Of a stretch of 64,000 nt of DNA, positions 6,615 through 19,351 are shown one piece after another. The notes beneath the pieces are model-generated. The model was not told the DNA's origin, did no database searches, and saw nothing but the letters and a program-made list of their open reading frames with translations. Each line of letters opens with the position of its first letter. Position 1 is the stretch's first letter. The stretch is from a virus (taxonomy: Duplodnaviria > Caudoviricetes): the IMG/VR virus record IMGVR_UViG_3300005686_000008, one strand, 5' to 3'. A program made the position numbers and the translations under genes.

Positions 6615-6687
6615 GGCCCTGTCGTCTAGAGGTTTAGGACGTAAGACTTTCAATCTTTCAACCGGAGTTCGATTCTCCGCAGGGTCA
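6615..6687 (+). tRNA. tRNA-Glu(TTC)
   Basis: Acceptor GGCCCTG/CAGGGTC-A, loop CTTTCAA, T-loop TTCGATT; no encoded CCA. Confidence 0.9.
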
Positions 6688-6716
6688 TTTTAGTCAGGTT
6701 TTTTATCAGGAAAAAG

Positions 6717-7214
6717 ATGAGTAAGATTTGTACGAAATGCAAACAACCAGGAACCTTTTGCAAAGATAGCAAAAGCAAAGACGGGTTACAATCTCAATGT
6801 AAGATTTGCAAATCTAAACAGATTGTTTCTTACCTTCAAAAAAATAAGGACAAAAGATCAAAATCTGGTCCAGAAAAAAGATTACGTTACTACTATAAGC
6901 ATAAAATTTCTATGAATATGTCTCGCATAATTCGTAGATCATTGCAAGGCTTGAAGAAAGGAAATCATTGGGAACAGCTTGTAGGGTATTCGGTTGAAGA
7001 GTTAAAGCAACACCTAGAAAAACTCTTCAAAGAAGGAATGAATTGGGAAAATTATGGGAAATGGCATATTGATCATGTTATTCCAGTTTCTTCCTTCAAT
7101 ATTGTTTCTGTAAATTGTGAGGATTTTAAAAAATGTTGGGACATTAAGAATCTACAGCCTTTATGGGCTAAAGATAACTTGAGCAAATCAAATAAAATCG
7201 GCCCTATCTGCTAA
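6717..7214 (+). CDS. Free-standing HNH-type endonuclease with N-terminal Zn finger
   Basis: CTKC...CKIC, WHIDHVIP, NLQPLWAKDNLSK; AT-rich; stop codon lies inside the next tRNA. Confidence 0.8.
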   Translation: MSKICTKCKQPGTFCKDSKSKDGLQSQCKICKSKQIVSYLQKNKDKRSKSGPEKRLRYYYKHKISMNMSRIIRRSLQGLKKGNHWEQLVGYSVEELKQHLEKLFKEGMNWENYGKWHIDHVIPVSSFNIVSVNCEDFKKCWDIKNLQPLWAKDNLSKSNKIGPIC

Positions 7215-7271
7215 CGGCTAGGCTCCCTGATTCTCAGTCAGGTAATACGAGTTCGAATCTCGTTAGGGTCA
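7200..7271 (+). tRNA. tRNA-Glu(CTC)
   Basis: GGCCCTA/TAGGGTC-A, CCTGA-TTCTCAG-TCAGG, TTCGAAT. Confidence 0.88.
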
Positions 7272-7285
7272 TTGAAAAGTTAAGA

Positions 7286-7357
7286 GGCTCCATCGTCTAA
7301 TTGGCAGGACACCACCCTCTCAAGGTGAAAATATGGGTTCAAATCCCATTGGAGTCA
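7286..7357 (+). tRNA. tRNA-Glu(CTC), second copy
   Basis: GGCTCCA/TGGAGTC-A, CACC-CTCTCAA-GGTG, TTCAAAT. Confidence 0.88.
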
Positions 7358-7367
7358 TTATAAATGA

Positions 7368-7439
7368 GGCCCTGTAGCATTATGGGTAGATCGGAAGACT
7401 TTCAATCTTCAGGACCGGGTTCAAGCCCCGGCAGGGTCA
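7368..7439 (+). tRNA. tRNA-Glu(TTC), second copy, irregular D arm
   Basis: GGCCCTG/CAGGGTC-A, GAAGA-CTTTCAA-TCTTC, TTCAAGC; D stem pairs poorly. Confidence 0.75.
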
Positions 7440-7442
7440 TTT

Positions 7443-7610
7443 ATGAAAAAGAACACCACTAAGAAGTATTGGTACTTTACTGAAAGAACCGAATGCGTAC
7501 TTTGCGGATATTGCGATACTGTCAAGTTTAGAAAGACTGGCAAAAAACCAAAAGATCCTAAGAAACGTAGCTCTTATAAGCAAATGGCATGTAGCGAGCA
7601 TTTCTTATGA
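7443..7610 (+). CDS. Small basic Cys-containing protein (55 aa)
   Basis: MKKNTTKKYWYFTERTECVLCG...CSEHFL; overlaps the next ATG (ATGA); below the ORF-track cutoff. Confidence 0.55.
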   Translation: MKKNTTKKYWYFTERTECVLCGYCDTVKFRKTGKKPKDPKKRSSYKQMACSEHFL

Positions 7611-7852
7611 AAAAAGAACTCCTTAAGTTACTTGGGCAACTAGCAGACGAAGCAAAAAGCTTTGGAGTTTATGAACAATATAGCGAAGCAGGAGAAACCC
7701 TATCCGCCGCTTCTGACCGAGTTTATGAACTAACAGCAGAAATTGTTCAACTTGCTACAGGCAAGAAGCCAACAAAGAAAGAACTTGAAGAGGTTCTTTC
7801 TGTTAGCGTTGGCGAAAAAGGGATGTATGATTGTGAAGATGAAGAAGAGTAA
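7607..7852 (+). CDS. Hypothetical protein
   Basis: ORF coupled to the upstream gene. Confidence 0.55.
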   Translation: MKKELLKLLGQLADEAKSFGVYEQYSEAGETLSAASDRVYELTAEIVQLATGKKPTKKELEEVLSVSVGEKGMYDCEDEEE

Positions 7853-7879
7853 GTAGTTTTGCCGATATAGCTAGATATT

Positions 7880-7953
7880 ACTCCCGTGGCTCGACTGGAT
7901 TAGGCGGAGGTTTTCTAAACCTCTCAAAGCGGGTTCGAATCCTGCCGGGAGTG
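7880..7953 (+). tRNA. tRNA-Arg(TCT)
   Basis: ACTCCCG/CGGGAGT-G, GAGGT-TTTCTAA-ACCTC, TTCGAAT. Confidence 0.88.
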
Positions 7954-8375
7954 CTTTATGGGCTTTGAACTAATTCTCTTTCTGAAATTAGCAGCCATAT
8001 TATCATTGTTATTTCTTTTACGACGCGACCGTTACGCCGGTAAATGCAAACTACATCTTTGTGACCTGAAAGCATTTATAGGTCCAGACTGTGGCGGCTA
8101 TACCTATTGCCCTATATGTCACGGTGAAGAAAAGGAGATAACAAATGCCAGAACTAAAGAGAAGACCTGATTTGACAAGCATGGAATTGCAGAAATTCGT
8201 TGGAGAAGACTACCTGCGAATAAAGGCCGAACTTGAAAAGGCAGGCTTGAAAGTATTCTGCGGAGAACACCATGAGAAAAGAGAAATCACTTCTTCGCTT
8301 GACCGTCATGTAGATATCAGATACGATAAGGGTAATCGAGAGATCATACGCATTTGGCGAACAGGCTAGGTCAAA

Positions 8376-8582
8376 ATGGCAAAAAAGAAACCCAAAACCT
8401 CTTGTTGCGAAGCCATGAAAGGGCAGATAGAACGGGAATGCCCGGTTCATCCGAATAAAATTGAATGTCCAGACTTTGTTGTAATCAAAACAAAGTCTGG
8501 TTTTGGTATTCCAATCCGAGATGGTGGTAGAAGCTTTCTTGCAATAAACTTTTGCCCTTGGTGCGGAACTCGTATTACTTAA
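8376..8582 (+). CDS. DUF6980-like Cys-rich protein
   Basis: CCEAM...CPVH...CPD...GIPIRDGG...INFCPWCG. Confidence 0.65.
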   Translation: MAKKKPKTSCCEAMKGQIERECPVHPNKIECPDFVVIKTKSGFGIPIRDGGRSFLAINFCPWCGTRIT

Positions 8583-8595
8583 TTCGGGTAGATAA

Positions 8596-9942
8596 ATGGA
8601 TACTAAAAGGGTTTACAAAAATCCTAACATGGAAAAAAGGAGGCAAGAATTGCTCAAGAAGGAGCAGGCTTCTTTTTTGTTAATTTCTAACAAGAACAGA
8701 TATGTCCATAAGCCCGAAAGAATCGATCTTGCCTTTGAAAAATCCAAAGAATACATTGCCAATGGCAAAATCCCCCACAGAGAAGATAAACTCGTAAATT
8801 TGTTTATTCCTCTTGGAAAAAGCAATTCTGCTTATCTTCTTCGTCTTCTCAAAACTGTTGAAAAAGAAACAGATTTCTTTGAAGATGAAAAGTATTGCTG
8901 GAAGTTTCTAAATGGATGCATGATAATGGCGTATTGGGGAGACTTCTGGGTAAGAGAGCCGGAAGTTTGGAAAAACAAAACCCATAATGTTGAAAAGCAG
9001 TTTACCAGCTTATTGCATTACCTTTTTGCCAAGTACCCCGTTCCTTCCTTCATGAACGAGGCTTTCTTGTCCAATGATGGAATGGGTTCGAAAAAGCAAG
9101 AATGGTTCTTGCATATGGGTAGCGGTCAAAACATAAGAACAGCGCATGGGTTGCCATACCCGATGACAAGAATGATGGCTCACCTGTTTTCTGAGGCTCC
9201 TTCAGATTTCAAAATCATGGAAGCCTTCAGGTTTGCTCATATCCGCTCTCTTGACGGCTCTATGCCCATAATCAAAGGGTGGCTTGAGTCCCCATTGGCT
9301 ATTGATTTTAGCAACATGGATTTCTGGGATTCCGTTGTTCGCTTTTTTATTGATAACCCGATGCTTGACCCCAGCAAGATTTCTTCCATTATTGATTACA
9401 TTTATAACCAAAAATACGTTGATACTCTTCTCGTAACTCCTGATGGCACAAGAATTAATCGGGGACCAGCGCAGCCTAACTTCACAATGAAGGGAAGGAA
9501 TCCCGAAGCGTTATTGACTCAAGTTGAGAAATGGCATACCCATACAGCTATCAGCAAAAAGAATTCTTTCTTGCAATGGAAGTCTTGCGGCATTCCTGGC
9601 GGTCGCATTGAAGAAGGTTCAGAAAAAGGCAGGAAAGTATACAGCATTGTTGAACTTCTTAACTCTACCGAGTTGAAAGAAGAAGGCAAAACAATGCACC
9701 ACTGCGTTGCAACATACGCATCTTCTTGTTCTTCTGGCAGAAATGCTGTTTACTCCGTTGCTCAGGTTGAAGGAAACGAATGCGGAAGAAAAGCCACAAT
9801 ATCGCTTAACCTTTCTGGCAAGCCAACCTTACAGGAAGCTCGCGGTAAATACAACGAAACACTAAGCGTCCCTGTTGCGAGGATAATTCGAACTTGGGCA
9901 AATTTGAGAAACGTTGCTATTTCAAATTGGGCAAAGTTGTGA
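8596..9942 (+). CDS. PcfJ-like domain protein
   Basis: C-terminal ELKEEGKTMHHCVATY...QEARGKYN; LFAKYPVPSFM. Confidence 0.8.
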   Translation: MDTKRVYKNPNMEKRRQELLKKEQASFLLISNKNRYVHKPERIDLAFEKSKEYIANGKIPHREDKLVNLFIPLGKSNSAYLLRLLKTVEKETDFFEDEKYCWKFLNGCMIMAYWGDFWVREPEVWKNKTHNVEKQFTSLLHYLFAKYPVPSFMNEAFLSNDGMGSKKQEWFLHMGSGQNIRTAHGLPYPMTRMMAHLFSEAPSDFKIMEAFRFAHIRSLDGSMPIIKGWLESPLAIDFSNMDFWDSVVRFFIDNPMLDPSKISSIIDYIYNQKYVDTLLVTPDGTRINRGPAQPNFTMKGRNPEALLTQVEKWHTHTAISKKNSFLQWKSCGIPGGRIEEGSEKGRKVYSIVELLNSTELKEEGKTMHHCVATYASSCSSGRNAVYSVAQVEGNECGRKATISLNLSGKPTLQEARGKYNETLSVPVARIIRTWANLRNVAISNWAKL

Positions 9943-10007
9943 TTTGATAGGGTTGCGGCCTCAGACTAAACTTCTTTCGATTTCCGTATAGGTACAGGAC
10001 CGAGCGA

Positions 10008-10652
10008 ATGGGAACAGGCATAGGACAACAGTTTCAAAAGATGCTTAGCCACTTGGTGGCTTTTCATCGAATGGAAAAAGTCCTAGAAACAGGTACGTTT
10101 ACTGGTAATGGTTCTACAAAGTGCTTGTCCGATGCTTTGGAAATGGTAGGCCCTTCTTCTTTGTTATGGACTATTGAAATCAATCATAGATACCTGAAAA
10201 TTGCGCAAGACTTCTGTAAGGGAAAAGCGAACATCGTATACTGTTTAGGTTCTAGCGTTCCCAAGAACCTGGTTCCTACGGTAGAAGATACAAAACTTTG
10301 GATTGAAAGTAACCTTGCAGAGAATCCAAAGATAAGAGTTGACTATAAGGGGTCTCCAGAAAAGTATGTTGAGGAATCTTCTGGTCAGTATGTTATTTAT
10401 GATCTTCTTGGCCTACTAATTCCTAAAATCAAGTATGACCTTATACTCCTTGATTCAGCAGGTCATATAGGTTTTGTTGAGTTTTCCTACCTAATGACCA
10501 TTCTTAACTATCCTACATTTATCGCCTTGGACGATATCAATCATATCAAACACTGGAAAACGTCTCAACAGATTTTTTCAGACAAGAGATTTGAGGTTAT
10601 CTTCAAGACAGATGAAAGATACGGCTCGATGGTTGCCAAGTTTACCCCATGA
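10008..10652 (+). CDS. Class I SAM-dependent methyltransferase-like protein
   Basis: VLETGTFTGNGST, WTIEI, DLILLDSAGH, IALDD. Confidence 0.7.
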   Translation: MGTGIGQQFQKMLSHLVAFHRMEKVLETGTFTGNGSTKCLSDALEMVGPSSLLWTIEINHRYLKIAQDFCKGKANIVYCLGSSVPKNLVPTVEDTKLWIESNLAENPKIRVDYKGSPEKYVEESSGQYVIYDLLGLLIPKIKYDLILLDSAGHIGFVEFSYLMTILNYPTFIALDDINHIKHWKTSQQIFSDKRFEVIFKTDERYGSMVAKFTP

Positions 10653-10836
10653 TTTATGCAAATAACTTCGCAAAAACTACTTGTACTTTTGAAAGCTAGC
10701 AAAGAAATGGCTAGACTGTATGAAATAACAGATTCCGATGCCATGCAAAAGGGATTGGAAATCATGGGCGATATAGCCTCTGAATTCTCATCAGATGAAT
10801 TGCAAAAGATGATTGAAGAGGTTGAGAAAGAAATTT

Positions 10837-10862
10837 GTCCCAGTAGCTCAGTTGAATAGAGA
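10837..10862 (+). pseudogene. 5' part of an interrupted tRNA-Arg(TCT)
   Basis: GTCCCAG-TA-GCTCAGTTGAATAGAG; the acceptor strand is exactly complementary to CTGGGAC at 11382-11388. Confidence 0.7.
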
Positions 10863-10874
10863 GTGTATAAAAAT

Positions 10875-10947
10875 GTCCTCGTAGCTCAATTGGAAGAGCA
10901 ACAGCCTTCTAAGCTGTAGGTTACTGGTTCGAGTCCAGTCGGGGATG
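10875..10947 (+). tRNA. tRNA-Arg(TCT), inside the insert
   Basis: GTCCTCG/CGGGGAT-G, ACAGC-CTTCTAA-GCTGT, TTCGAGT. Confidence 0.9.
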
Positions 10948-10982
10948 CTTGATTAGAAGAAGGATTTCTAAACAGTTCTTTG

Positions 10983-11007
10983 TATTTCACCTATAGGAGG
11001 TGAAATA
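10983..11007 (+). promoter_or_regulatory. RBS-sequestering hairpin of the HNH gene
   Basis: TATTTCACCT/AGGTGAAATA 10-bp stem covering the Shine-Dalgarno and the A of ATG. Confidence 0.7.
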
Positions 11008-11354
11008 TGAGGAAATGTCAAAAATGTCAGGTAGAAAAAAATGAAGAAGAGTTTTATGCGACAACTCGCAAAAACAGCTATTGTAAAGTCTGTTTTAATG
11101 AGTATTGCATAAACAGATGGAAGCAAAGAAAAATTGATGCAGTTAACTACAAAGGTGGCAAATGCGTAATATGTGGATATAAAAAGAATCATTCCGCATT
11201 AGATTTCCACCACAGAAATCCTAAAGAAAAAGATGTTGATTGGAGTCAATTAAGACTTAGAAGTTGGAAAAAGATTATTGAGGAACTCAATAAATGCGAT
11301 CTAGTTTGTAGAAACTGTCATGCGGAAATCCATAATCCGCAGTCAAGCTTCTAA
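11007..11354 (+). CDS. HNH homing-type endonuclease
   Basis: CQKC...CKVC, GGKCVICGY, ALDFHHRNP, KCDLVCRNCHAEIH. Confidence 0.88.
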   Translation: MRKCQKCQVEKNEEEFYATTRKNSYCKVCFNEYCINRWKQRKIDAVNYKGGKCVICGYKKNHSALDFHHRNPKEKDVDWSQLRLRSWKKIIEELNKCDLVCRNCHAEIHNPQSSF

Positions 11355-11389
11355 GCGGCAGGTCACAGGTTTGAGTCCTGTCTGGGACG
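11348..11389 (+). pseudogene. 3' part of the interrupted tRNA-Arg(TCT)
   Basis: CTTCTAA-GCGGC-AGGTC-ACAGG-TTTGAGT-CCTGT-CTGGGAC-G. Confidence 0.75.
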
Positions 11390-11392
11390 TTT

Positions 11393-12226
11393 ATGAAAGT
11401 TATTAGAAGCGAACATGGAATTGAATTAATTCCAGAAACGGAGTTCGAAAAAGAGTGCTTGAGGCTAATTGCCAATAGAGCAGTAACTCCTGTTTGGACA
11501 GACTCTTGGAACCGAAGCGGCAATCTCAAGATTGAAGCTAAAGAACCAGATTGGGGAACGTAGTCATGTCAGAGATGCACGACTGTCCTCAATGTAATAA
11601 AAGGCATGTTTCATGGGACGCTCGATGCGGCTCATGGTTATGCCTAACAATTGGATGCGGATATTCTACGAAAGTTTATCCACGATTGAAGAAAGAGAAC
11701 GGAACAATGAACGGTCCCGAATCCCTTTATTCTCTCCGGTTTCCTAACGGATTCAAGATTGATGACGAATCAGCCCTGTCTGAAATGTATGTTAAGGACA
11801 GGATTGACTGCGAAGCGACTGGAAACATCAAGTTTCTCATTTCAAAATGGCAGTTTTTATGTCCTTCGATTCAAGGTAAAACCAATATCAACAACGATGA
11901 CGTTCTTGTTCCTCGCGAACTTTTGCATCTTGCTATATTCGCTCGTAAGTTTGGGGTTAGCGAAGGATTGATTTTCTTCCAACTCATTAATAGCGGTAAA
12001 TTAACTGTTGATCAAGATGGATTTGTAAGAAGCAAGTAAGGATTTAGACATGAAATACCTTTGTTTTATCTTTGGAGTTCTTTTGATTGCCGGCGCTTTG
12101 GCCGCTTGGGTTTTCTATGGCAAGCCCGGTGAGGATGGGGGAGGCCATGCCTTTGTTGGCATTGCTGGCGCTGTTATTGCAGGTTGGGGCGTAAGTATTC
12201 ATGAACGGGAACTGGAAAAGAAATAA
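11393..12226 (+). other. Three small ORFs (11393-11563, 11566-12039 Zn-ribbon, 12050-12226 two-TM)
   Basis: Manual translation; tightly packed + ORFs. Confidence 0.5.
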
Positions 12227-12231
12227 ATCAA

Positions 12232-12305
12232 GCTCTCGTAGCTCAGTTGGATAGAGCAGCGGTTTCCTAAACCGCAGGTCGTGCGTTCGAGTCGCGCCGG
12301 GAGCG
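12232..12305 (+). tRNA. tRNA-Arg(CCT)
   Basis: GCTCTCG/CGGGAGC-G, GCGGT-TTCCTAA-ACCGC, TTCGAGT. Confidence 0.92.
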
Positions 12306-12324: not shown

Positions 12325-12618
12325 ATGTTCAACCCTGTCGAGTGGATGAAAGAGCAGTATGCCGAATCATTTTGCCTTAGTATGGTAACTCTCATACTGT
12401 CAGTCCCTCTTTCTGTATTCGCATTGGGGCTTGAAATTGGCTGGTTGTTTTATGTTTCTGTTTTCGTAACACTCTTTGCTATTGTCTTGTTTATAACTAC
12501 GCTGGTCCTTTTTGTTCTCGAAGAAAAGCGTAAGGAAACGGAAGCAGCAGAAAGAAAGAAGAAATACTATGGAAATGCCGTTGACAAATCTGGAGAGAGT
12601 TCGTCAAGGAAGGCTTGA
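12325..12618 (+). CDS. Small two-TM membrane protein
   Basis: RBS aggag; two hydrophobic helices. Confidence 0.55.
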   Translation: MFNPVEWMKEQYAESFCLSMVTLILSVPLSVFALGLEIGWLFYVSVFVTLFAIVLFITTLVLFVLEEKRKETEAAERKKKYYGNAVDKSGESSSRKA

Positions 12619-14050
12619 GAAGATTCGAGAACTTGGTATTGACCCATACGGAATTCCAGTTTTTGAAATAAAGCCTATTTATGAGGTTGTTGATTCGTTT
12701 ATAGGTAATGAATCTACAGCTTCTCCAGAGTATCTTGCAAGAGAATGGAGAACGCAAGGTCGCATTGTCTTACTAAGAGACAATGGCGGTCTTATTTGGC
12801 TTAAGATTCGAGATGATTCCAGAGAGGTTCAAATTGCCATTAGCAAGAAGGATGTAGTTGGAGAGAAGACTTTTCAACTTGCCAAGCTTCTTGACCTTGG
12901 AGATATTGTATTTGTTGTAGGCACGTTGCGCAGGACAAAGACTGGCGAAATTACTATATGGGCGACGGATGTTGGATTGGCCTGTAAGAGCCTCGCCCAT
13001 CCTCCTGATAAGGTTGCAGGACTTCAGGATGTTGAATTGAGATATCGTAAGCGGTACATTGATATGGCCTTTAATGAAGGCTTTATCAAGACTCTTAAGA
13101 TTCGTTCAAGAATCATTCAACTTTTACGTTCAGAGTTTGAAGATAGGCGTTATATCGAAGTTGAAACGCCGATGCTTCATCCTATTGCTGGCGGCGCTGC
13201 GGCAAGACCATTCAAGACCCATCTAAACGCCCTTGATATTCCTCTTTATATGAGAGTTGCTCCAGAACTCTATCTCAAGAGGCTCATTGTTGGAGGAATG
13301 AGAAGAGTCTTTGAAATCAATCGCAACTTCCGTAATGAGGGGATTGATGCAACTCACAATCCTGAGTTTACCGCCCTTGAAGCGTATGCTATCAATGAAG
13401 ATGTATTCTCATTGATGAATCTGGTTGAAAGCATTATTAAGGACGTAGCCCGTAACCTTTTCAGGAGTCCCCCTTCAAGCAATCCGCTCCCGGATCCTGT
13501 TCATGTTTACAATTACGATGGATACGAAATTGACTTGCGTTCTCCGTTCAAGATTGTCAGCTATAGCGAACTCTATCATAGAGCAACAGGTCTTACTTTG
13601 ACCGAGGATACGGACTTTGTAAAGGCCAATGAAATATTTGAAGAGAAGGCAGAAGTCCTTATTGACCCAAGAATTCCTACGTTTGTTCATGGATATCCTG
13701 CCGCTATTTCTCCTCTTACAAAGGTTGCTTCCAAGCAGTCAATTATTGCGCAAAGAGCAGATTTGTTTATTGGCGGCATGGAAATTGGAACTATCTATAC
13801 TGAGCAAAACGATCCGAATGTTCAATATAACGTGTTTACCAATCAACTTGCCGGGGACGATGACGAAGAATCTACCCATAGAACCTTAGATGAAGATTTC
13901 ATTGAAGCCTTGAAGGTTGGTATGCCTCCTACCGGAGGACTTGGAATCGGCATTGATAGGTTAGTAATGCTTTTGACTGGAAACACAAGTGTTAGAGACG
14001 TTATCGCATTCCCGTTTATGAGGCCGCTTCACTCAGCAGTGGCCGACTAA
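12569..14050 (+). CDS. lysS: Lysyl-tRNA synthetase (class II)
   Basis: OB-fold, ELRYRKRYID, EVETPML, GGAAARPF.TH, FRNEGID.THNPEFT, GMPPTGGLGIGIDRLVM. Confidence 0.96.
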   Translation: MEMPLTNLERVRQGRLEKIRELGIDPYGIPVFEIKPIYEVVDSFIGNESTASPEYLAREWRTQGRIVLLRDNGGLIWLKIRDDSREVQIAISKKDVVGEKTFQLAKLLDLGDIVFVVGTLRRTKTGEITIWATDVGLACKSLAHPPDKVAGLQDVELRYRKRYIDMAFNEGFIKTLKIRSRIIQLLRSEFEDRRYIEVETPMLHPIAGGAAARPFKTHLNALDIPLYMRVAPELYLKRLIVGGMRRVFEINRNFRNEGIDATHNPEFTALEAYAINEDVFSLMNLVESIIKDVARNLFRSPPSSNPLPDPVHVYNYDGYEIDLRSPFKIVSYSELYHRATGLTLTEDTDFVKANEIFEEKAEVLIDPRIPTFVHGYPAAISPLTKVASKQSIIAQRADLFIGGMEIGTIYTEQNDPNVQYNVFTNQLAGDDDEESTHRTLDEDFIEALKVGMPPTGGLGIGIDRLVMLLTGNTSVRDVIAFPFMRPLHSAVAD

Positions 14051-14086
14051 ACTTTTGAATCAAGACTCGTTAAAAAGGAGCAGTAT

Positions 14087-14713
14087 ATGAGTATGAGCAT
14101 GCAAGCGGCAATCCAGAAGTTTCGTTCCGAGTACAAAGGCCCTCCGATCTATTTCTTTATCACTGGCGGCGGGCATTCCTGCCTTGATTTCCGTCGTTTC
14201 CCGGGAGCGAGCAAGTTGCTTCGCGGAGCGTTTGAACCTTACGCTTCTGAGGAAATTGCAGAATTCATGAATGGATTTCACCAGGGCGGACAACATATCG
14301 ACCCTAGCAATTTTTCATTCTGTACTGAACAGATGACGATTGATGCGCTTAGCGCTTTGAGCGGTTTTGTTCATGATACCATCGCCTTAATGGTAGTTGT
14401 CAATTCCGCCCTTACTACTGACCGTTGGCGCAGGGGAGATAATCGCTCCTATATCGCAACCAGTCGCGGCAACCTCTTCAAGTTCAATATTAACAAGTTG
14501 GACGAGGAAACCTACGGAGTCCTCCAGAGGAATAAGCCGGCGCTCATTGATGATATTCGTCATATGGAAGATGCGAAAGTTGGGCAAGTTGTCTTGGCGA
14601 TTATCATGAATGATCCAACCATGATGCCATCTCTTGATGCTGGCGAAAGTTTGGACGTTATTTGTCGCGGCGATATCTATCAGAATCACGTTGACCACTT
14701 TGCATCTTGCTAA
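14087..14713 (+). CDS. CinA-C/PncC-like domain protein
   Basis: FITGGG......FPGASK......PYA and ALTTDRWRRGDNR, like the N-half of CinA-like/nucleotidyltransferase fusions. Confidence 0.55.
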   Translation: MSMSMQAAIQKFRSEYKGPPIYFFITGGGHSCLDFRRFPGASKLLRGAFEPYASEEIAEFMNGFHQGGQHIDPSNFSFCTEQMTIDALSALSGFVHDTIALMVVVNSALTTDRWRRGDNRSYIATSRGNLFKFNINKLDEETYGVLQRNKPALIDDIRHMEDAKVGQVVLAIIMNDPTMMPSLDAGESLDVICRGDIYQNHVDHFASC

Positions 14714-14720
14714 GTCAAAC

Positions 14721-15371
14721 ATGAACACTGATCTCATTAAGACCTTTTACGAGACGACTGCGGGCGACCGCAACCGTCTCTTTTCATTCGTAGTAAAGCC
14801 TGACGGAACTCCTATGGAGTTTCATCAATTCATTGCCGAGCAAAAACTTCAAATATCTATAATTGAAGATTCTTTTGTAGTAATACCAGGAAGTTTCAAT
14901 CCCCTTCATGACGCTCATAGAAGGTTTTTTGATAATGCTCCAAAAAACTATGGGAATAGTTGGCGCAAAGTTGTAGCAGTTTTTGAATTGTCTATTCATA
15001 GAAAAGATAAAGAATTTCTTCCTTTTGAAGAGATGGCAAAGAGAATTGAACAGTTTAGAGGATATGCGCCTGTTTGGGTAACAAATGCCTGCTATTTCAT
15101 TGAAAAAGCAGGACTTAGTATTCCTATTTGTCCTTTTTTTGAAATTGGATTTGATACTGCTGAAAGATTAATTTCTGACCACGGGGTAATTGGAGTTCAA
15201 GGTATAGATGCTAAATTTACAGTCAATCCAAGAGAAATTAATGGAAAACTTTGGACTATTGATGATTTGAAAGTTCAGTTTGGAATTACTCCTTACAATA
15301 TGCATCCTTCTCTTACTGTTTATGATACAGTAGGGATAAGTTCAACGGGTATTAGGAATGGTGTAAAATGA
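14721..15371 (+). CDS. HxGH nucleotidyltransferase (NadD/NMNAT-like)
   Basis: IPGSFNPLHDAH, FELSI...DK, F.EKA, IGFDTAERL, ISSTGIR. Confidence 0.75.
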   Translation: MNTDLIKTFYETTAGDRNRLFSFVVKPDGTPMEFHQFIAEQKLQISIIEDSFVVIPGSFNPLHDAHRRFFDNAPKNYGNSWRKVVAVFELSIHRKDKEFLPFEEMAKRIEQFRGYAPVWVTNACYFIEKAGLSIPICPFFEIGFDTAERLISDHGVIGVQGIDAKFTVNPREINGKLWTIDDLKVQFGITPYNMHPSLTVYDTVGISSTGIRNGVK

Positions 15372-15988
15372 TTATTGGCGAATCCCCATATAGTGTTGTT
15401 GCAACGAAATGGCATACATGGTTCTGCGAAGGACCGTACCAGAGCGGTAAGCAATGGAAAACCGAAAAAGAAGCCATTGATGAATGCAATCTTCTTAATT
15501 CTGTATATAACACTGGAGCAGCTAAAACGCATTCTGTTTCAGATGTTATGGTTTGTAAACTTCCTTATCAGGATGATTTCTTTGTTCATGCCCAAATGGA
15601 CGGGAAAGATGTATGGCTTTGTCAAGATGGAACTTGGACATTCAATGAAACTGATGAAAAAGTTTCTCTTCCGGGAAATACTGGCTTGAAGATGCTGGTT
15701 GAAAATAAAGACCTTGCCAAACTTGAAAGTGACATTGCCAACGCCTATCGTTGTGCTAAAGAGTACGTTCCAGATTACCCTTGGGACGATTCTCGCCAAA
15801 CTGCCTCCCAAGCGGTTTGGGCTTGCGGAGAATCGTATAGCGGAGTATGTAAGGCTTGCGAGGATTGGCAAAGACTTTTCAAGCATTTTGCCCCTGATGC
15901 TTATTCTAGGCTTTTGAGTACAAGTACCAGAGAGTATATTGAACTAGTCAAAAAACTAGAAGAGCAGGAAAAAAAGAATGAATCGTAA
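15368..15988 (+). CDS. Hypothetical protein
   Basis: ORF overlapping both neighbours. Confidence 0.55.
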   Translation: MIIGESPYSVVATKWHTWFCEGPYQSGKQWKTEKEAIDECNLLNSVYNTGAAKTHSVSDVMVCKLPYQDDFFVHAQMDGKDVWLCQDGTWTFNETDEKVSLPGNTGLKMLVENKDLAKLESDIANAYRCAKEYVPDYPWDDSRQTASQAVWACGESYSGVCKACEDWQRLFKHFAPDAYSRLLSTSTREYIELVKKLEEQEKKNES

Positions 15989-16913
15989 AGGCCTATGTTG
16001 TATTCATGTCGGATTACAAAAGTCTGGCTCCAAGTTTCAAACGATGACTTGGAGCAGATTTTCTCAAATAGGCCGAACCGCTGCCCTACCTATTTTGGCG
16101 GAAAGATATAAAAACAACCTTTCTATTATTTTGAAGATTCTTCATTGTTGCGCGCAAAAGGGCTGGTGCTATAGAGTTAGCAGCGATATCTTTCCCCTCA
16201 TGACTCATCCAGAGGCTAATCTAAAATGGGAAGATATTCCCAATCATGATGAACTAACCCGTCTTTTTCTTTCTTGCGCAAAAGAAATCTATACCAATAA
16301 TATTCGAGTTTCATGTCATCCAGACCAATTCAATGTTCTCGCTAGTCTAAATGACAAGTCTGTTGCTCAAACTATTACCGAACTTAATCATCATGGCTGG
16401 TTCATGGAACGCTTAGATAGCACAGGCTATCATTCTCCCATCAACATCCACCTTAATTGTTCTAGCGGAGACCCCAAAGAAATAGCCAAAAGGTTTAAGG
16501 ATGGTTTAGATAGGCTTGATAAGCATACTAAGCCTCGGTTGGTTATTGAAAACGAAGATAAAGGCATTTGGAATGTTCGCAATCTTATTGAACATATCCA
16601 CGAACTCACTGGAGTTCCCATTACATTTGATTATTTACATCATAAATGTAATGATGGCGGTTTGACAGAAAAAGAGGCTTTTGAGCTTTGTATTCAGACA
16701 TGGGGTAAGACTAGACCATTGTTTCATTTCTCAGAATCTTTACCTGGTCAGAAGAATCTTAGGAAGCACGCTGACTATCCGACCTATGTACCTGATACTT
16801 ATGGGTATGAAATTGACCTAGATTACGAGTTCAAGCAAAAAGATTTAGCTCTCGAAAGAGCAGAAAAAATAGCCCAAAACCTTGCAGGTGAAGAGTTGCA
16901 GGCTAAACTTTAG
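15978..16913 (+). CDS. uvsE: UV damage endonuclease UvdE/UvsE
   Basis: YRVSSDIFP, SCHPDQFNVLAS, INIH, LVIENED, FDYLHH, PLFHFSE, HADY, E.KQKD. Confidence 0.93.
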   Translation: MNRKGLCCIHVGLQKSGSKFQTMTWSRFSQIGRTAALPILAERYKNNLSIILKILHCCAQKGWCYRVSSDIFPLMTHPEANLKWEDIPNHDELTRLFLSCAKEIYTNNIRVSCHPDQFNVLASLNDKSVAQTITELNHHGWFMERLDSTGYHSPINIHLNCSSGDPKEIAKRFKDGLDRLDKHTKPRLVIENEDKGIWNVRNLIEHIHELTGVPITFDYLHHKCNDGGLTEKEAFELCIQTWGKTRPLFHFSESLPGQKNLRKHADYPTYVPDTYGYEIDLDYEFKQKDLALERAEKIAQNLAGEELQAKL

Positions 16914-17005: not shown

Positions 17006-17092
17006 GGCTTTGGCCGAAGGAATGACGGTTAACAACCCCACCACTTAGGAGTTCTGCCGTAAGGCTTCCGTTGTCCACCCCTTGCCTCAGCC
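17006..17092 (+). ncRNA. Y RNA-like unit 1
   Basis: Ends pair GGCT..GGC-CG-AAGG / CCTT-GCC..AGCC; upper stem ATGACGG/CCGTTGT followed by TTAAC; internal GTAA tetraloop hairpin. Confidence 0.75.
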
Positions 17093-17133: not shown

Positions 17134-17264
17134 AGTTCCGAGTCGAAGCATTTTAGGTTAACAACGTTTGGGTTTCAGTAGCTTTCTATGACGCAGATAA
17201 AGAAGGTAATCCCGAAAGGGCTTCCCAATACTCTGCACTCCTAAAGGCATCCCTTACTCGGACT
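17134..17264 (+). ncRNA. Y RNA-like unit 2
   Basis: TCCGAGT-CG-AAG / CTT-ACTCGGA; upper stem TTTAGG/CCTAAA followed by TTAAC; internal GAAA tetraloop hairpin. Confidence 0.78.
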
Positions 17265-17315: not shown

Positions 17316-17379
17316 TAGAAGTCGAAGGTAGAAGGTTAACATATTGCAAAAAAGACCTTTTGCCACCAACTTACTTCTA
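17316..17379 (+). ncRNA. Y RNA-like unit 3 (minimal)
   Basis: TAGAAGT-CG-AAG / CTT-ACTTCTA; upper stem GGTAGAAGGT/ACCTTTTGCC; GGTTAAC motif. Confidence 0.78.
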
Positions 17380-17402: not shown

Positions 17403-17525
17403 GCGCCTGTAGTGTAATGGCTAGCACGCTAAAACATCCTGACCAATTACTTACCGAACAGGTCGAACGGAAAGGGTTATCTCTATATCCCAGAGGTAGT
17501 TTGGGTTCGAATCCCAACGGGCGCT
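17403..17525 (+). ncRNA. yrlA: YrlA-like tRNA-mimic Y RNA
   Basis: Acceptor GCGCCTG/CGGGCGC, D arm GTGT-AATGGCTA-GCAC, T arm TTGGG-TTCGAAT-CCCAA; anticodon arm replaced by a long insert with TTACC/GGTCGAA and GGTTATC; adjacent to Ro60. Confidence 0.85.
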
Positions 17526-17545
17526 TTGTAAACGAATGTTGGAAG

Positions 17546-17585
17546 TTACATACTTCAGTAATAGTTACTGAAGTCGAATAAGGAG
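17546..17585 (+). promoter_or_regulatory. Ro-motif hairpin abutting the Ro60 RBS
   Basis: ACTTCAGTAA-tag-TTACTGAAGT, then CGAA, then TAAGGAG. Confidence 0.6.
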
Positions 17586-17592
17586 ATTGCAA

Positions 17593-19293
17593 ATGGCAAA
17601 CTATGGAAAGTTGACTGGTTCTCTTAGCTCCAAGACCCCAAAGGCTACCCCTCAGACGGTACAGACTCCTGGAACCGTTCAGAATAACGCCGGTGGTTTC
17701 GTTTTTGAGATTAATAAGTGGGACCGCCTGGACCGCTTCCTGATCCTCGGTACGGATGGGGCAACCTATTACTGTACTGAGCGCAAGATGACTCTTGATA
17801 ATGCTAAGAACGTTATTGAGTGCATTAAGGAGGATGGTCTGCGCACCGTTCAGCGCATCGTTGAAATCAGCGATGCTGGTCGCGCTCCAAAGAACGACCC
17901 TGCCTTGTTTGCTCTTGCGCTTTGCGCAGGTCATGATTCGGCTACGCCCGAGACTCGTCGCGCTGCTCTTGCTGCGCTTCCGAAGGTTGCTCGTATTGGA
18001 ACTCACTTGTTCCAGTTCGCGCACTTCGTTGACGGTTTCCGTGGTTGGGGTTCTGGTCTTCGTAACGCTATCGCCAACTGGTATAACGGTATGAAGCCTG
18101 ACCGCTTGGCTCTTCAGGTTGTCAAGTATCCTCAGCGCACCGCAGAAGAGGGTAACTCCAAGTCTTCCTGGTCGCATGATGACTTGCTTCGCAAGTGTCA
18201 CGCAAGGGGCGACGAGCTTCACAATATGATCTATGCTTATGTAACTCGCGAAGGCAAGTTGCCTGACCCTGTACCTGAGCAGCTTGTTATCCTTGAGGGT
18301 GCAAGCAAGATCAAGGGTCAGACTAACCCGAGCATCGTTGCTTCTCTTGTCGAGGAGTACCAGCTTCCTCACGAGCTGATCCCGAAGGAAGTCGCTAACG
18401 ATCCGAAGGTATGGCAGGCTCTCTTGCCTCACATGCCTATCACCGCTACTATGCGCGTTCTCAACCGCCTTACTTCGTATGGAGTTCTTAAGCCGTTCTC
18501 CAGCGAACTCAAGATGGTTACTGAGCGCTTGACCAACGTTGAGCAGATCAAGAAGGGTCGCGTTCACCCGTTGGCCGTTCTTGGCGCTCTCAAGACTTAC
18601 TCCGCAGGTCGCGGAGTTCGCGGAAGCCTTACCTGGTCGCCAATCGCCCAGGTATCTGACGCTCTCAACGAGATGCTTTACCTTGCGTTCGACGCAATCG
18701 AGCCAACTGGTAAGAACATCCTTTTGGGTCTTGACGTTTCTGGTTCTATGACCGGCGGTAGCGTTGGTGGACTTGACTTCGTTACGCCTCGCGAGGCATC
18801 TGCTGTTATGGCGATGGTTACGGCGCGCAGCGAAAAGAACTGGCACGTTATCGGCTTCACTTCTGGCGGATATTCCTACGAGAAGGGAACTTCTGGTAGG
18901 TATGGTTTCGGCGGGAACTACGGAGTTACCGAAATCAATATCAGCCCGAAGGACAAGCTTGATACGGTTTGCAACAAGATTGAGAAGCTTCCAATGGGAG
19001 GTACTGATTGTGCCCTGCCGATCATGTATGCTCTTGAGAAGGGTCTTAATGTTGACGCCTTCGTTACCTACACGGATAACGAGACTTGGGCTGGTTCTAT
19101 CAAGCCTCACGAGGCTTTGAAGATGTATCGCAATCAGCGTAACCCGCAGGCGAAGGTGATTGCGGTTGGTATGACGGCTACGGAGTACAGCATCGTTGAC
19201 GAGAACGACGCAGGTTCTATGAACTTCGTTGGATTCGACACGAGCGCCCCGGCTCTCATGGCGGACTTCATCCGTAAGGATTTGCGCCGCTAA
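17593..19293 (+). CDS. rsr: Ro60/Rsr TROVE-domain RNA-binding protein
   Basis: NNAGGFVF, LDRFLILGTDGATYY, GRAPKNDPALFALA, RIGTHLFQF, RGWGSG, SHDDLLR, vWA MIDAS DVSGSM, GGTDCALP, YTDNETW. Confidence 0.96.
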   Translation: MANYGKLTGSLSSKTPKATPQTVQTPGTVQNNAGGFVFEINKWDRLDRFLILGTDGATYYCTERKMTLDNAKNVIECIKEDGLRTVQRIVEISDAGRAPKNDPALFALALCAGHDSATPETRRAALAALPKVARIGTHLFQFAHFVDGFRGWGSGLRNAIANWYNGMKPDRLALQVVKYPQRTAEEGNSKSSWSHDDLLRKCHARGDELHNMIYAYVTREGKLPDPVPEQLVILEGASKIKGQTNPSIVASLVEEYQLPHELIPKEVANDPKVWQALLPHMPITATMRVLNRLTSYGVLKPFSSELKMVTERLTNVEQIKKGRVHPLAVLGALKTYSAGRGVRGSLTWSPIAQVSDALNEMLYLAFDAIEPTGKNILLGLDVSGSMTGGSVGGLDFVTPREASAVMAMVTARSEKNWHVIGFTSGGYSYEKGTSGRYGFGGNYGVTEINISPKDKLDTVCNKIEKLPMGGTDCALPIMYALEKGLNVDAFVTYTDNETWAGSIKPHEALKMYRNQRNPQAKVIAVGMTATEYSIVDENDAGSMNFVGFDTSAPALMADFIRKDLRR

Positions 19294-19319: not shown

Positions 19320-19351
19320 GCCCCTCGGTGGACTCCATCGAGGGGCTTTTC
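19320..19351 (+). terminator. Intrinsic terminator after Ro60
   Basis: GCCCCTCGGTGG-act-CCATCGAGGGGC-TTTT. Confidence 0.8.

Follow-up and report, generated by a model that had tools for sequence, protein, structure and literature searches.

A conserved Y-RNA-like hairpin at the ribosome binding site of phage and bacterial rsr genes is a candidate autogenous operator of Ro60

Why does a copy of the motif by which Ro60 recognizes Y RNAs lie directly beside the ribosome binding site of the Ro60 gene? The question is raised by a 64,000-nucleotide stretch of viral DNA (the window) that is part of a 370-kb virus record. The Ro60/Rsr gene of the window (rsr; 17593-19293, + strand) encodes a protein of 566 amino acids whose TROVE and Ro60 vWA domains were recognized by profile matches (PF05731, E 8e-30; PF25045, E 2e-52) and by structure-template matches to 2NVO over the full length (E 9e-108) and also to 1YVP. 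The full-length match covers X. laevis Ro60 as well as D. radiodurans Rsr, and KYxQR...WSHxDLLR, the segment that binds Y RNA, is intact. By its sequence, then, the gene is a canonical Ro60: the TROVE and Ro60 vWA domains, the full length and the conserved Y-RNA-binding segment that mark the family are all present. A sequence scan placed a terminator-like hairpin 3′ of rsr (19320-19346, + strand). The genes upstream on the same strand (12512-16913) include those for a class II tRNA synthetase, a cytidylyltransferase-like protein and the UV endonuclease UvdE, the last of which directly precedes the Y RNA array described below; Rsr has a link to UV survival. The tRNAs located at 6615-12305 consist only of four tRNA-Glu and three tRNA-Arg. 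The Ro60 homolog of Agrobacterium phage Atu_ph07 (L209, 883-2538) is named 'Clp protease-like protein' in GenBank, which apparently is a mis-annotation.

Four Y-like RNAs are encoded on the + strand between the UvdE gene and rsr. The first (17006-17092) possesses the core GC|CGAAG with CTT|GC as the opposite strand, and the second (17134-17264) and third (17316-17379) each possess GT|CGAAG with CTT|AC. The fourth (17403-17525) is a tRNA-shaped Y RNA in which a hairpin with a GT|CGAA core replaces the anticodon arm within an otherwise ordinary tRNA topology. Cores of the hairpin type made up 81 of 317 Y-like cores near rsr genes in a rough pattern count. In L184/L006 a whole Y RNA of standard orientation situated ~120 nt before the rsr start ends just 5′ of the Shine-Dalgarno (SD) sequence with no short hairpin, and in many further loci the 3′ strand of a Y RNA lies near the rsr ribosome binding site.

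The leader element of the window lies between the fourth Y RNA and rsr. It comprises a 5′ flank, CAT (17549-17551, + strand), a perfect 10-bp hairpin closed by AC/GT (17552-17574, + strand; 5′ arm 17552-17561, 3-nt loop, 3′ arm 17565-17574) that was defined by sequence, predicted fold and covariation, and the Ro60-recognition core GTCGAA (17573-17578, + strand) which conforms to the published GNCGAA motif (PMC4201824). The GT of the core forms the final two bases of the 3′ arm, and the CGAA (17575-17578) is adjoined directly by the SD sequence TAAGGAG (17579-17585, + strand). The hairpin ending in a Y-RNA-type GTCGAA, which had been noted in a preliminary description of this DNA, is confirmed by these coordinates, as is the observation that the opposing strand reads CATAC in place of the CTTAC of Y RNAs. 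The immediate adjacency reported for TAAGGAG also stands, but that reported for the start codon does not as seven bases separate the SD from the ATG at 17593. The orientation requires correction: the YrlA type had been assigned to the element, but the published YrlA motif is near the 5′ end (PMC4201824) whereas GTCGAA comes last in the leader. Instead, the strand order, with the partner strand first and GTCGAA last, is that of the tRNA-shaped Y RNA at 17403-17525. The leader continues with TA after GTCGAA so that the final G of the GNCGAA(N0-1)G motif is absent, and at most two pairs can form beyond the bulge, which amounts to no real second stem.

Structure prediction recovered the hairpin stem in both the minimum free energy and centroid structures with a z-score of -2.6 for 17540-17600. 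The predicted pairing probability of the stem in context was 0.96. The SD was predicted to be partly paired without protein, its unpaired probability being 0.52 in the window (median 0.34). A sigma-70 promoter scan gave no candidate on the + strand. Searches of Rfam at both gathering and E-value thresholds returned no match for the leader element. Within this genome the element precedes rsr only, which is one of 286 SD-bearing genes. Four copies of GTCGAA share one strand of the 440 nt that precede rsr, but the hexamer by itself is not enriched in the window (21 copies vs. 26 expected). Relatives therefore were used to assess chance occurrence.

Loci containing rsr were gathered from viral, genome and metagenome collections, starts were placed and duplicates removed, which left 164 loci. 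A loose rule, in which an RYCGR core closes a stem of ≥5 bp located 8-40 nt 5′ of the start, detected the element in 43 of 164 rsr loci compared with 19 of 446 other genes and with 6.8 ± 2.3 loci (maximum 15) in shuffled sequences. A strict rule retained 35 of the 164 non-redundant rsr loci vs. 3 of 443 other genes from the same loci, and left about four fifths of the sampled rsr genes without the element. The 164 loci are best-scoring matches that are mutually related, not a random sample, and p-values consequently overstate significance.

Because the search rule was shaped on these loci, features that it had not seen and sets that had been held out also were checked. The rule took no account of the bases 5′ of the stem, which proved to be mostly CTT, TTT, ATT or CAT across element-bearing loci. 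Of 18 lineage representatives, 14 have T at position -1 (p ~2e-7, a significance inflated by kinship among loci). The unselected flank thus agrees with the partner strand of Y RNAs. A held-out viral set collected with a Streptomyces phage Ro60 query contained the element in 19 of 31 members by the same rule, including nearly the whole Streptomyces-phage group; two of the 19 fall in a clade already seen. Among cultured phages, Karimac, Forrest and PacManQ carry the element, and seven others lack it, including mycobacteriophage Catera and Gordonia phages BearBQ and Forza. Inspection by eye revealed the element with the same CAT flank before Nonomuraea rsr and a GA|CGGA version that overlaps the SD in Picosynechococcus 7002. 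The element of Rhizobium rsr is borderline and that of Bosea rsr is absent. Overall the element was found in phages, Armatimonadota, Chloroflexota and Myxococcota, and these comparisons indicate that its location beside rsr is not due to chance. A reverse scan of viral contigs with the 17-base pattern yielded 26 matches, none of which was near a Ro60 gene and most of which lacked a start codon. This number approximates that estimated for chance, which makes the scan uninformative and is a sign that the motif by itself is not diagnostic.

The Ro60 clade to which the window belongs was chosen by protein identity and comprised seven loci, all of which possess the element. In a plain alignment of this clade 90.9% of cells were paired compared with 22-42% in slid controls. 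Five of the eight pairs had changed on both sides in a compensatory manner, and no shuffle out of 500 came up to the level of the alignment. The alignment thus indicates that the hairpin structure is under selection. Across loci the stem sequence is free to vary, but G-Y|CGRA and the opposite TT persist. The preliminary description had proposed that GTCGAA hairpins be sought beside the ribosome binding sites of other phage and bacterial rsr genes, and that a motif not conserved upstream of rsr homologs would tell against its reading. The motif and hairpin are kept at these sites, with covariation, at the frequencies given above (35 of 164 loci vs. 3 of 443 controls).

When mapped on a FastTree phylogeny of 163 Ro60 proteins, the distribution of the element required 12 changes, at least 10 of which are forced by well-supported branches. 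It thus occurs on no fewer than 10 distinct branches of a tree that does not separate repeated gain from repeated loss. Whole clades are filled, including all nine members of a second phage clade, all five Armatimonadota and most of two Myxococcota clades.

The position of the element is constrained closely. The C of CGRA is 11-23 nt upstream of the start codon, and the SD begins 1-9 nt after the core. In Myxococcota CGGA overlaps the SD. In one Streptomyces phage group (L244, L246-L249 and L275, ~1470-1503) the 3′ arm contains the SD, and a CGGT or CGAA core is located only 8-11 nt before the ATG; this form may be a stem-locking version of the proposed operator. The 5′ neighbor in many loci is a coding sequence rather than a Y RNA. 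In the closest relatives a 186-codon gene for a ParB-like protein (weak Pfam match) is interposed between the Y RNAs and rsr, and in five relatives the hairpin is within the last codons of the upstream gene, where the amino acids vary and pairing is maintained. Terminating ribosomes would be expected to melt the hairpin in this location. The ParB-like gene has no match in the genome of the window, and the hairpin nonetheless is kept. As the relatives possess the gene (L010, 1929-2489), loss is the simpler reading, and the window appears to have lost it. Positions 17536-17581 would then correspond to the first bases of the ParB-like gene joined to its last codons, which include the hairpin, and an 11-codon mini-ORF (17536-17571) is in the frame of rsr. 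The element tracks the start of rsr and not the Y RNA array.

In one Myxococcales genome (L100, 4060-4106) the element also occurs as a perfect copy, with a TTT|GC stem, GC|CGGA and SD, before a gene for an HNH nuclease that is located where a tRNA array downstream of rsr ends. This gene possibly is a second one controlled by Ro60. The element is absent from homologous HNH genes in related loci.

Two further relationships with Y RNAs were considered and discarded. Co-evolution of the operator core with that of the local Y RNA (GT here, GC elsewhere) was set aside as the match is confounded by G+C content and kinship. Also rejected was a switch that would have the 5′ arm serve a second time, as the 3′ strand of a preceding Y RNA: an alternative partner is missing from most loci, and the Y RNAs of the loci inspected are complete and separate.

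Taken together, the element is real and conserved, and it is probably regulatory. A covarying hairpin with the Ro60 core G-Y|CGRA at its end, placed against the rsr SD or overlapping it, is best read as a likely autogenous operator of translation that imitates the Y RNA helix to which Ro60 binds. Newly made Ro60 would be taken up first by Y RNAs, which offer the full CTT partner strand, a second stem and the GGTTA motif. Once free Ro60 exceeded the supply of Y RNA, it would bind the stripped-down and probably weaker copy in its own mRNA, and the ~60-kDa ring would cover the CGAA and adjoining SD so that the 30S subunit was kept from loading. In loci with the SD in the 3′ arm, bound Ro60 would lock the stem. 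The outcome would be Ro60 near parity with Y RNA and a limit on Y-free Ro60, which has different activities; Rsr free of Y RNA does have activity of its own (PMC4201824). Ro60 recognizes chiefly the GNCGAA strand (PMC4201824), and a phage Ro60 binds a minimal CGAA RNA with a KD of 16.6 nM to which each CGAA base contributes three- to four-fold (PMC12135203). The minimal ligand in those experiments retained a stem-bulge-stem (PMC12135203), compared to which CAT in place of CTT and at most two pairs past the bulge suggest that affinity for the leader may be low. The absence of the element from most sampled rsr genes and the melting expected in five relatives likewise weigh against the operator reading. 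Thus, of the autogenous control that had been put forward in the preliminary description, the conserved Y-RNA-like site at the rsr ribosome binding site is now established, and binding by Ro60 and blocked initiation are inferred. It also is fairly probable that the loci compared here represent a widespread, undescribed family of cis-regulatory leaders through which bacterial and phage Ro60 would repress its own translation by Y-RNA mimicry, and which was kept or re-evolved on at least 10 branches of the Ro60 tree.

The position of the element in the sequence would be compatible with repression and with other outcomes alike. The alternative that survives best, and that we consider unlikely, is that Ro60 binds the leader to alter mRNA turnover or protection by recruiting or blocking PNPase or another nuclease instead of by blocking initiation. 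PNPase is attenuated by a phage Ro60 complex, and complexes of Ro60 with Y RNA cooperate with this nuclease in Deinococcus (PMC4201824). However, the element has no counterpart of the PNPase-binding effector domain, and the tight spacing to the start (11-23 nt from the C of CGAA, with the SD 1-9 nt away) would not be needed by a decay signal. Furthermore, PNPase acts from the 3′ end.

More doubtful is the view that the element is a vestigial or miniature Y RNA, either the stub of the last unit of the array or an excised small RNA, with no regulatory role on rsr. The spacing of only 26 nt from the fourth Y RNA of the window, the orientation shared with it and the frequent location of Y RNA ends near the rsr ribosome binding site are as expected of such a remnant, but the intervening 186-codon gene of relatives, in the last codons of which the hairpin is embedded, is not. 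Moreover, neither GGTTA nor a second stem is present, in most loci no upstream Y RNA ends with the 5′ arm of the element, and excision would take away or expose the SD.

The chances are slimmer again that the hairpin acts independently of Ro60, as an mRNA stabilizer, nuclease site or fixed tuner of initiation in which the match to CGAA is incidental. Hairpins near ribosome binding sites are common in 5′ leaders and the SD is inside the stem in some Streptomyces phages, but the persistence of G-Y|CGRA and the opposite TT while the stem sequence varies, and the near absence of the combination before other genes (rsr alone among 286 genes in the genome, 3 of 443 controls), argue against an incidental match. 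Least likely, and very improbable, is a positive or assembly role. Ro60 would then release the SD from its weak base pairing to coding sequence, in keeping with the partial pairing predicted above (0.52 unpaired in the window, median 0.34), or the site would capture nascent Ro60 to pass it on to the neighboring Y RNAs. Against such a role, a 60-kDa ring bound so close to the SD (1-9 nt) would be expected to collide with the footprint of the 30S subunit, a stoichiometric RNA partner fits positive feedback poorly and known mimic operators repress (PMC8058203).

The autogenous operator reading bears on how Ro60 and its RNA partners are kept in proportion. Y RNAs require Ro60 to accumulate (PMC4201824), and feedback through an operator would complete this balance from the other side and give Ro60 a role on mRNA. 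If the reading is correct, free Ro60 is actively limited, and Ro60 can be a sequence-specific regulator of mRNA, now and then also that of other genes. The aligned variants outline a minimal natural ligand for Ro60 in which GC, GT, GA or AC precedes CGRA opposite YTT. A literature search, the coverage of which left the main Ro60 reviews outside, found no report of rsr autoregulation.

Translational operators are familiar in phages, among them the coat hairpin of MS2 and the sites of T4 gp32, gp43 and RegA. Like these, the leader element is a short sequence near the ribosome binding site of a phage mRNA that would be read by a phage RNA-binding protein; unlike them, it is common to cellular bacteria and appears to be modeled on a non-coding RNA ligand. 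The ligand family includes YrlA (Rfam RF02553). With YrlA, YrlB and Yrn1/2 (PMC4201824) and Yrl1/2 of phiLo (PMC12135203) the element shares a GNCGAA core at the end of a helix, an opposite YTT-like strand and an adjacent Ro60 gene on the same strand. In contrast to these RNAs, the strand order of the leader is reversed and closed by a short loop, and the element is part of an mRNA leader with neither GGTTA motif nor effector domain. Assignment of the element as a bacterial Y RNA accordingly was rejected on the basis of its length (~30 nt), its form as a short hairpin that has the motif on the 3′ side at its end, and the lack of a second stem, tRNA-like domain and Rfam match.

The closest parallel in design is the mimicry of a target in the protein's own leader, which is an established mode of feedback for ribosomal proteins and for E. 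coli thrS (PMC8058203). In both cases a copy of the primary target is placed at the initiation region of the 5′ leader, and the primary target would titrate the repressor. The case of Ro60 differs in that a Y RNA is mimicked in place of rRNA or tRNA, the element of ~30 nt is distributed among phages and bacteria, and repression is at present a proposal. The core and opposite strand of the element are as in the Y-like RNAs of the same locus, the position at the initiation region is conserved and its structure covaries, and the element is specific to its gene, as it precedes one gene out of the 286 in the genome and 3 of 443 controls. As far as sequence can tell, the element therefore displays every feature that is expected of an autogenous mimic operator.
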